From assembly GCA_035403165.1 (NCBI GenBank), contig DAONEP010000005.1, forward strand, positions 13,499 through 77,498: DNA of 64,000 nucleotides. The letters run 5' to 3'. Position numbers and translations under genes: made by a program. Origin of the DNA: Bacteroidales bacterium. GTDB lineage: Bacteria; Bacteroidota; Bacteroidia; Bacteroidales; UBA4417. Shown piece by piece: positions 805-34,690 of the stretch. The notes beneath the pieces are model-generated. The model did no database searches, was not told the DNA's origin, and worked only from the letters and a program-made list of their open reading frames with translations. The first letter of the stretch is position 1. Each line of letters opens with the position of its first letter.

Positions 805-880
805 GTCGCTATTGGTTTTTGTTTAAGTGCTTTTATTTATATCAAGATTCCTGCCGGAATTTATTTTGTGTCAGAATGTC

Positions 881-1090
881 AGGGAGAAGAGGCTGGGAGC
901 AGGGAGCAGGGAGCAGGGAGCAGGGAGAAAGGGGCAAGGGGCAAAGGTTAAAAGTCAAAAGTCAAAGGGCAAAGGTCAAAGGTCAAAGAGCATGGAGCGA
1001 GGAGCGGGGAGCAGGGAGAACGGAGCAAGGAGTAGGGAGCAGAGAGCTAATGGCTAATGGCTAAAAGCTAAAAGCCAAAGGGCAAAGTTT
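881..1090. repeat. Degenerate heptanucleotide tandem array of about 30 in-phase 7-nt units
   Basis: Cutting from 881 in 7-mers gives GGGAGCA x4, AGGGGCA x2, AAAGTCA x2, AAGGTCA x2, GGGAGCA-type variants, AATGGCT x2, AAAAGCT and AAAAGCC, all in one phase. The + strand is purine-rich and nearly T-free. The array is intergenic between two minus-strand genes. Confidence 0.9.
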
Positions 1091-1189
1091 ACCTGCCTGG
1101 GGCGGGCCTGTGGGAGGACGGCAGGGTTAAAAGTCAGAGGCGGGGAGCAGACCGGTAGGGTAACCGTAAGAGAGTTTCCGGATTACGGT

Positions 1190-34307: not shown

Positions 34308-34690
34308 GAGAAAATATATGACTCTCAGTGTTTCTTCGTGTTCCGTGGCTCCGTGGTAAAAAAGAACCACTAAGACACTTAGGGCACTGAGGTTCACTGA
34401 GAAAATATGCAACACTCGGTGTTTTTTCGTGTCCTCCATGGCTCCGTGGTAAAATAACCTTAGTGCCCTGAGTGTTCTGAGTGTCTAAGTGGTATTTTGC
34501 GTTCTCCGTAGCCCGTGGTAAAAAAGAACCACTAAGACACTTAGGGCGCTGAGGTTCACTGAGAAAATATGCAACACTCGGTGTTTTTTCGTGTCCTCCA
34601 TGGCTCCGTGGTAAAATAACCTAAGTGCCTCTGCGTGTGCTGAGTGTCTAGGTGGTATTTTGCGTTCTCCGTAGCCCGTGGTTTAAAAAA
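34308..34690. repeat. Composite tandem/inverted repeat: 162-bp unit, two full copies plus a partial one
   Basis: GAGAAAATATGCAACACTCGGTG recurs at 34399 and 34561 (offset 162). Each unit has two related halves of about 80 bp ending in CCGTGGTAAAA. It contains inverted CACTAAG/CTTAGTG-rich arms. The region lies between convergent genes. Confidence 0.9.

Follow-up and report, generated by a model that had tools for sequence, protein, structure and literature searches.

A seven-base repeat tract and its 38-nt putative insertion element in an intergenic spacer of a Bacteroidales genome

We analyzed a stretch of 64,000 nt (the window; G000:C5:13499-77498) from a Bacteroidales metagenome-assembled genome (MAG) of 3.29 Mb in 147 contigs that is 96% complete; its closest records are Lentimicrobiaceae MAGs in which a putative zinc metallopeptidase, encoded near the start of the window, has 90% and 88% protein identity. 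An initial annotation, made from the letters alone, had drawn attention to a run of degenerate heptanucleotides just upstream of this peptidase gene. Both flanking genes lie on the − strand, so the 385-nt spacer that holds the array follows one gene and precedes the other. Here we report that the tract extends from 881 to 1149 and that it is probably noncoding repeat DNA with a fast turnover, a member of the heptanucleotide long simple sequence repeat (LSSR) class that resembles the short tandemly repeated repetitive (STRR) sequences, without a function at this locus. It is interrupted by a 38-nt element that was found only in this species.

Results

Periodicity and composition of the tract

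The initial annotation had placed a phase-locked array of about 30 units at 881–1090, and autocorrelation bore out the periodicity. Identity within this stretch was 0.764 at a lag of 7 nt and 0.653, 0.619, and 0.571 at lags of 14, 21, and 28 nt, and all other lags gave 0.23–0.38. Shuffling the same stretch 2000 times yielded a lag-7 mean of 0.333 (S.D. 0.031) and a maximum of 0.43, which places the array at a z-score of ~14. Tandem Repeats Finder (TRF) returned six overlapping period-7 rows at 880–1079. The stretch is strictly 7-nt periodic, and cutting it into 7-mers from 881 gives 30 units and holds every sub-family in phase. The proposed end was wrong: the tract continues past 1090 to ~1149, interrupted by the 38-nt element at 1088–1125, after which the register picks up exactly, for a total run of ~35 seven-base repeats. 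The components of the tract are the following.

881–1087, no strand: main heptamer array of 29.6 units, purine-rich on the + strand (lag-7 identity, TRF)
895–918, + strand: G-quadruplex motif (GGGAGCA)x4, with four G3 tracts and 4-nt loops, a match to the canonical motif
1088–1125, + strand: species-specific putative insertion element of 38 nt, made of TTTA and a 34-nt core with a purine-rich interior
1126–1149, no strand: continuation of the array 3′ of the element, 3.4 units, register unchanged

The array is a mosaic in which blocks of identical units adjoin single-base variants. Reading from 881 to 1087, two degenerate units are followed by four copies of GGGAGCA, one GGGAGAA, and two AGGGGCA; then come six units of the AAAGTCA/AAGGTCA type, AAGAGCA, and eight xGGAGCx units; and the end is formed by two AATGGCT units, AAAAGCT/AAAAGCC, AAAGGGC, and AAAG. 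This last tetranucleotide (1084–1087) combines with GTT (1126–1128) on the far side of the element to form AAAGGTT, and AAAAGTC, AGAGGCG, and GGGAGCA complete the tract. The units of the window array rank among the 25 commonest array units of the genome. Repeated unit-wise amplification with divergence, as the initial annotation had supposed, agrees with the identical blocks standing beside single-base variants, with the single polarity of nearly all loci with multiple arrays, and with the whole-unit insertions and deletions (indels) seen between strains and described below.

On the + strand, 881–1090 contains 87 G, 79 A, 26 C, and 18 T (79% purine). The suggestion that this polypurine tract has triplex or slippage potential held for slippage and failed for triplex formation, because the longest uninterrupted purine run in the array is 13 nt, poor for H-DNA. 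The predicted G-quadruplex at 895–918 is the better-founded structural feature of the two. Its strand is the antisense one for both neighboring genes, and G3–4 tracts continue past 918 to 943. Genome-wide, 8 of 45 such motifs fall within arrays, which make up 0.33% of the genome. An Rfam search of 700–1300 gave no match at E values up to 1, and no inverted repeat of at least 8 nt that could serve as a partner for the array was found in 780–1200.

Recurrence in the genome and in Bacteroidota

Similar arrays recur throughout the MAG, the outcome of a check that the initial annotation had proposed. A sliding lag test, with which TRF agreed, detected 123 period-7 arrays totaling 10.9 kb, versus 0–5 arrays for each of the periods 3–6 and 9–13 and 29 for period 8. 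The period-7 arrays cluster into 68 loci and are present in 43 of 2123 internal spacers (10% of spacers of at least 300 nt) and at 23 of 294 contig ends. The array-bearing spacers include the 692-nt one between rlmH and rdgB. Contigs break at these arrays, and the heptamer repeats are a main cause of the fragmentation of the MAG. The 36 arrays that overlap crude open reading frames (ORFs) all do so in short ORFs made of the repeats themselves or in over-extended starts; these overlaps are spurious, so the arrays are effectively all intergenic.

Each locus tends to keep one orientation. A single strand polarity was observed in 29 of the 30 loci with multiple arrays (chance under independence, ~3e-16), and 65 of the 68 loci are unipolar overall, which fits the prediction of local amplification. 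Polarity is weakly linked to gene strand (p = 0.04). Polarity set by replication was rejected, as local GC skew is unlinked to it (p = 0.28). Exact doublets define 60 unit types in the genome, none of which corresponds to STRR1–3, TAACTGA, or GGGAATC.

Such an array had been described as unusual for a Bacteroidota-type genome, a view that our survey contradicts. Across a diverse set of Bacteroidota, sampled as 80 loci (624 kb) retrieved via the zinc-peptidase gene, period 7 was the commonest, with 15 arrays in 13 loci versus 0–8 for the periods 4–12, and several of these arrays adjoin the same zinc-peptidase gene. Relatives within the family also have arrays made of these unit types; the genome G028, for instance, contains a ~300-nt run of TTTGCCC/TTTACCC. 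The proposed likeness to STRR-type repeats does not extend to the units: those of the window differ from STRR1–3, and the genome contains no tandem triplet of CCCCAGT, TTGGTCA, or CAACAGT. STRR sequences, reportedly described by Mazel et al. in 1990 from heterocystous cyanobacteria, are intergenic tandem heptamers found at many loci, with several unit families per genome. The arrays found here share the intergenic, tandem, and heptameric character and are likewise dispersed, at 68 loci; the host phylum differs, the nearest records being Lentimicrobiaceae/Bacteroidales MAGs.

Long heptamer arrays have been reported in several Bacteroidetes (MacGregor 2015, PMC4679880), and according to the account of Mrazek, Guo, and Shah 2007 given in PMC4679880, no class of long SSR is more abundant than heptanucleotides in the majority of the surveyed prokaryotic genomes. 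The array is ordinary for its kind, the heptanucleotide LSSR/STRR-like class, which is known and still lacks an explanation. In that same account, an LSSR is a tandem repeat with a unit of 1–11 nt that is longer than expected by chance, and the window array has this property (0.764 versus 0.333 ± 0.031 over 210 nt). Heptamers are also the predominant long SSR class in the present genome, where they are mostly noncoding and dispersed, and slippage is the generator proposed for LSSRs there. What sets the present arrays apart from LSSRs as summarized in PMC4679880 is that they are mosaics of many unit types per locus, with one polarity each, and that they form the exclusive context of the 38-nt element; the Lentimicrobiaceae lie outside the Mrazek 2007 survey as reported in that source.

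A small probable insertion that leaves the register intact

The core of the element ends in 6-nt inverted termini, CCTGCC (1092–1097) and GGCAGG (1120–1125), and copies were gathered by these termini. With its TTTA prefix, the element matches 60 times in this genome and is absent from 43 of the 44 other family genomes; a looser core pattern gave 64 matches here versus 0–3 in 300 genomes of the order. In a scan of 241 million metagenome records, the element was recovered on 10 contigs from two samples; nine of these align with the MAG over at least 800 nt, and all nine are 98.7–100% identical to it. By these searches the element, of which there are at least 60 copies, is confined to this species. 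The copies listed all lie within 7-nt repeats or, for one sub-family, within 8-nt (GTTTCAGN) repeats.

For 37 non-nested copies, we excised the segment TTTA...GGCAGG and asked by what offset the right flank best continues the 7-nt phase set by the left. An offset of 0 fitted best in 33 of the 37 copies. The elements measure 37, 38, 39, or 41 nt, none a multiple of 7, and the idea that the element is itself part of the 7-nt register, which fits none of the 37 copies, was rejected. Because the flanks are in register once the element is removed, we infer that it was inserted as a discrete unit into arrays that already existed. To its left, the flanking repeat ends in AAAG, ACAG, AAAC, or GAAC, and either the insertion produced no target duplication or a 7-nt duplication is masked by the heptamer array. 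The element provides a clean, datable marker of small elements invading repeats with the register kept, and this species-specific sequence is one of the two new findings of the present work.

Not all copies represent independent events, as some have spread together with their flanks as 72–73-nt tandem modules. Copies occur singly, in direct tandem, or nested, and their orientation relative to genes is unbiased (10 versus 7 spacers). No empty, element-free site was found in ~100 kb of same-species contigs or in three further spacers. Folding gave 6-bp terminal pairing around an interior of 21–25 nt, with z-scores from −0.3 to −1.9; a stable hairpin was rejected, since the element folds no better than its shuffles. 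One sub-family, CCTGCCTGCC...GGCAGG, lacks the TTTA prefix and resides in 8-nt GTTTCAGN arrays (G000:C54:11416-11611, C3:30-425, and C24:38400-38473), where its copies, nested or in tandem, often stand head-to-tail with other copies (GGCAGGCCTGCC junctions).

Several candidates for a mobilizing enzyme were considered and discarded. An origin through a reverse transcriptase was rejected, with no PF00078 match in the 96%-complete MAG. The genome has five Y1-transposase genes, two of which exceed the NCBIfam cut-off for REP-associated tyrosine transposases (RAYTs; REP, repetitive extragenic palindrome), and none of the five is flanked by the element, so that RAYT/IS200-type mobilization was set aside. 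An IS200-like gene with short CCTGCC hairpins upstream was also dismissed: its orthologues, 89–92% identical, occur in genomes without the element. The searches of the MAG for PF00078 and Y1-transposase genes therefore left no candidate. One RAYT gene carries its own REP array, which is different from the element. This gene (NF047646, 88 bits; G000:C21:34270-35230, L104) is flanked by a REP motif of ~48 nt with CGCGCGAATCCTTTCGCG, in about five tandem copies on one side and inverted copies on the other. Gene and motif make a typical REP/RAYT pair that has no relation to the 38-nt element.

Two families of small repeats resemble the element. Some of the small dispersed repeats of Nostoc, reportedly described by Elhai et al. 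in 2008 (Genome Res 18:1484), are self-nested, and the class comprises very small, lineage-restricted elements that often sit within tandem heptameric repeats and encode no protein. Compared by description, these repeats are probably the closest published analogue: the 38-nt element is likewise short, present in many copies, lineage-restricted, and located inside tandem heptamers, and it differs in its length (37–41 nt versus 21–27 nt), its 6-nt inverted termini, and its Bacteroidota host. With the REP/REPIN-RAYT systems (PMC3116915), the element shares a short, extragenic, multicopy, and lineage-specific nature as well as inverted ends, in a genome that encodes RAYT-type proteins. It departs from them in that inverted doublets (REPINs) are absent and no RAYT/IS200-type gene is flanked by the element.

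Variation among strains and between species

We compared orthologous spacers, defined as those in which the same two genes are adjacent. In the closest species (peptidase with 90% protein identity), the same spacer has no array, and in the next species (88%) an unrelated CTTACTC x6 array stands at the same place. The spacers of other relatives contain nothing comparable, four ATAGAAG units, or short hairpins of 6–7-nt repeats.

Independent assemblies of the same species were found through exact-protein look-ups. Samples in which the species occurs include JGI 3300025858, 3300009692, and 3300009694 and ENA ERZ27257423 and ERZ28614038. In four of them, from other samples, the 385-nt spacer is base-for-base identical to the window. 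Because these assemblies span the whole spacer identically, an assembly artefact, which the initial annotation had named as a possible refutation, is ruled out. Array length does vary between strains, as that annotation had suggested checking. In a Logan contig with 3 differences among the 675 sites of its peptidase gene, the promoter-proximal end of the window array is remodelled by a 21-nt (3-unit) deletion and several substitutions in 60 nt. Other arrays of the species differ by indels of 14 and 21 nt and of 14 and 7 nt, with coding flanks that differ by 0–1.3%; at a further array, a 14-nt indel is accompanied by a single substitution in 2457 flanking nt, and a 217-nt higher-order module was lost with no substitution in 2051 flanking nt. 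These comparisons of assembled sequences establish whole-unit length change (7, 14, and 21 nt) for the family and, on one occasion (21 nt), for the window array. Slipped-strand mispairing or unequal exchange would account for the whole-unit changes.

Heptamer arms around PF05635 genes

A similarity search with the window array led, in the relative G028, to inverted arms of AAAGGGC/AAAAGTC-type units that enclose a PF05635 ORF (E 1.2e-12). PF05635 is the family of the 23S rRNA intervening-sequence protein (IVP), an Avd-like four-helix bundle. Three of the six PF05635 genes in the present genome, which include one at G000:C24:36111-36416, have stringent arrays within 200 nt, versus 3.6% of all genes, and a fourth has short inverted arrays. 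In 10 relatives with 27 PF05635 loci, period-7 arrays lie within 300 nt of 14 loci, eight of them two-sided; the zinc-peptidase loci used as controls gave 4 of 55, none two-sided. At the same 27 loci, periods 6 and 9 were absent and period 8 occurred five times. The two-sided loci mostly show a purine-rich arm followed by a pyrimidine-rich arm, and the arms are 72–84% complementary over 25–65 nt. The association of heptamer arms with PF05635 genes is real. It is strong and reproducible, is the second new finding of this study, and recasts the question of why seven bases as a testable one about a protein family and a hairpin cassette.

A related arrangement has been described in the intervening sequence (IVS) of the Coxiella 23S rRNA, where heptameric repeats of variable number lie beside an S23p ORF (PMC4990558). 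The resemblance to the 23S rRNA IVSs with S23p/IVP ORFs of Coxiella and Leptospira (PMC4990558) and to PF05635 cassettes outside rRNA lies in the variable-number heptamers next to a PF05635 gene and, at other loci of this genome and its relatives, in the inverted arms that enclose that gene. The window array itself differs from such cassettes in having no partner arm and no gene and in lying outside rRNA.

Gene context and a conserved promoter-like block

The genes on either side of the spacer and a block between the array and the peptidase start are listed below.

130–804, − strand: putative neutral zinc metallopeptidase of 224 aa, the downstream gene (Pfam PF04298, E 1.4e-87)
841–882, − strand: promoter-like block between array and ATG, CTGACATTCTGACAC and then CGGCAGG-N4-TTGAT, with σ54-type −24/−12 spacing, the σ54-like part at 841–856
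1190–1759, − strand: γ-carbonic-anhydrase-like hexapeptide-repeat protein of 189 aa, the upstream gene (NCBIfam NF050158, E 2.4e-44, under the curated cut-off)

The ATG of the peptidase gene is at 804 and the stop of the γ-carbonic-anhydrase-like gene at 1190 (both − strand). The array is accordingly 76–77 nt from the former and ~99 nt from the latter, distances that the initial annotation had given correctly. Alignment across Bacteroidales gave the consensus CTGnCATTnTGACA...TTTGGCAG...TTTTGA for the block, which is kept from Lentimicrobiaceae to Bacteroides, Parabacteroides, and Prevotellaceae. We read the block as a putative promoter and, because of its conserved σ54-type −24/−12 spacing, the peptidase gene may be RpoN-dependent widely across Bacteroidales. 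The array had been called promoter-proximal, and it does abut the upstream edge of the block; it stops exactly there and does not enter the conserved sequence. It occupies free space without overlapping the conserved signal. In other genomes, unrelated arrays stand upstream (L002, L041) or downstream (L023, L053) of the promoter-like block.

Simple consensus scans found no σ70-type promoter and a sole, weak terminator-like site on the − strand (1097–1081), composed of the element end and T-rich units. Its hairpin is short, and the count of such sites is within the shuffle expectation. Directly past the stop of the upstream gene, a 7-bp inverted repeat, ACCGTAA/TTACGGT (1163–1169/1183–1189), with a 13-nt loop and no T-tract, stands separate from the repeat tract.

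Discussion

The reading that we favor as the likely one, that the tract at 881–1149 is fast-turnover repeat DNA of the heptanucleotide class, brings together its periodicity, the genome-wide family to which it belongs, its intergenic location, the whole-unit indels among strains, the turnover of the spacer, and the in-register insertion. Slipped-strand mispairing or unequal exchange in a 7-nt register would have multiplied a short A/G-rich 7-nt unit locally. Units would then have mutated and variants been amplified anew, giving the blocks of GGGAGCA, AAAGGTC, xGGAGCx, and AAAAGCT, until the tract filled the unconstrained DNA that separates the upstream stop codon from the conserved promoter block in front of the zinc-peptidase gene. 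At a later point, the species-confined 38-nt element would have inserted at 1088–1125 and left the register undisturbed. We infer both the role of slippage as generator and the lack of a locus-specific function. Taken alone, the array matters little; it is one more case of an abundant, still unexplained bacterial heptamer repeat, and it explains why the MAG is fragmented.

Some observations weigh against this reading. In one strain, 42 of 3184 flanking positions differ and none in the spacer does, where ~5 differences would be expected (L119:2071-2455 versus window 805–1189). An invariant spacer is unlike a hypermutable tract and could reflect constraint, recent recombination, or a consensus assembled from mixed strains. 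The strong association of heptamer arrays with PF05635 genes means that their origin may not be plain polymerase slippage. Finally, G-rich GGGNATC heptamers have been proposed as functional G-quadruplex elements in Xanthomonas and Nostoc (PMC4692102). The window array resembles those GGGNATC repeats (PMC4692102) in having about four units of a G-rich heptamer that sit between ORFs of the same direction, upstream of one of them and on its antisense strand. It differs in its unit, GGGAGCA, with no tandem GGGAATC in the genome, and in that GGGAGCA is one block of a 35-unit mosaic and lies ~90–120 nt from the start codon rather than within 50 nt.

The association with PF05635 leads to a different account, which we hold to be possible and rather unlikely, in which the window array is a solo arm or relic of a selfish IVP cassette, a hairpin with two inverted heptamer arms and the PF05635 gene in its loop. 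Arrays without a gene would be what remains after loss of the loop and the other arm, or arms that have grown alone. The enrichment of arrays at PF05635 genes here (3 of 6) and in relatives (14 of 27 versus 4 of 55 controls), the complementarity of the arms, the path from the window array to the inverted arms in G028, and the heptameric repeats next to the S23p ORF of the Coxiella IVS (PMC4990558) all speak for it. Set against these are a window spacer with neither an inverted partner nor a PF05635 gene, the unipolar state of 65 of 68 array loci, and the roughly half of PF05635 genes that lack arrays. Cassettes may make arrays, capture them, or share a cause with them. In its widest form, which we advance tentatively and as no likelier than the solo arm, the intergenic heptamer arrays of Bacteroidota would be arms or relics of selfish PF05635 hairpin cassettes and, in this species, also the exclusive landing pad of an ultra-small (37–41 nt), site-specific mobile element. 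If so, the element would enter a unit behind AAA(G/C) and leave either no visible target duplication or a 7-nt one hidden by the repeat, and gene spacers would host a layered community of tiny selfish DNAs.

A cis-acting role, in which a template-strand G-quadruplex, a protein-binding tract, or an insulator/spacer separating the end of the γ-carbonic-anhydrase-like gene from the σ54-like promoter tunes transcription or read-through, seems to us improbable. The motif at 895–918 and the enrichment of such motifs in arrays would suit it, as would a placement like that of the GGGNATC repeats (PMC4692102), the invariance of the spacer in four assemblies, one of them from a strain ~1.3% diverged, and the weak terminator-like site at 1097–1081. 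Yet the nearest species lack or replace the array in the same spacer while keeping the promoter block, one of six sub-blocks is competent to form a G-quadruplex, orientation relative to genes is not fixed genome-wide, and the terminator-like hairpin is both short and within the number expected from shuffles. Still further from what we would expect is a contingency (phase-variation) locus whose copy number toggles the peptidase promoter. Whole-unit indels do occur in arrays of the species, and one strain has lost 21 nt at the promoter-proximal end, yet the array stands on the upstream side of the conserved block rather than between promoter elements or in an ORF, its length is identical in four assemblies, and 7-nt steps so far upstream offer no obvious switch logic; phase variation is, moreover, not typical of a housekeeping-type peptidase. 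We attach almost no weight to two other readings, an assembly artefact and a genuine small coding gene. Contigs assembled from short reads frequently end within the array (L114-L116, L120, L121), and arrays occupy contig ends of the MAG; the identity of four independent assemblies across the whole spacer speaks against it. The + strand ORFs (819–1064 and 827–1057) include one of 76 aa that JGI gene callers annotated here, with no Pfam hit on record and with equivalent short ORFs in most arrays, and we rejected them as coding, as a reading frame cannot be held by a 7-nt period.

Additional observations

A second family of hairpins with short-repeat arms is present in the window, where a 162-nt unit occurs in 2.1 tandem copies at 34342–34682 and at least 30 copies related to it are scattered through the genome; the inverted arms of the unit consist of 8–9-nt repeats of the CACTAAGA/CACTGAGG type. 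In the spacer between the dehydroquinate (DHQ) synthase and 5-enolpyruvylshikimate-3-phosphate (EPSP) synthase genes (G000:C76:3758-4385), one strain has a 388-nt insertion (L184:3283-3670) that is mostly AT-rich and whose end repeats ~110 nt of the adjoining spacer; the surrounding spacer is rich in arrays. Metagenome contigs from this species bridge the MAG contigs C69-C121-C97, C67-C114, and C76-C8 over gaps of ~320–1080 nt, and the ends of C69 and C114 carry arrays.

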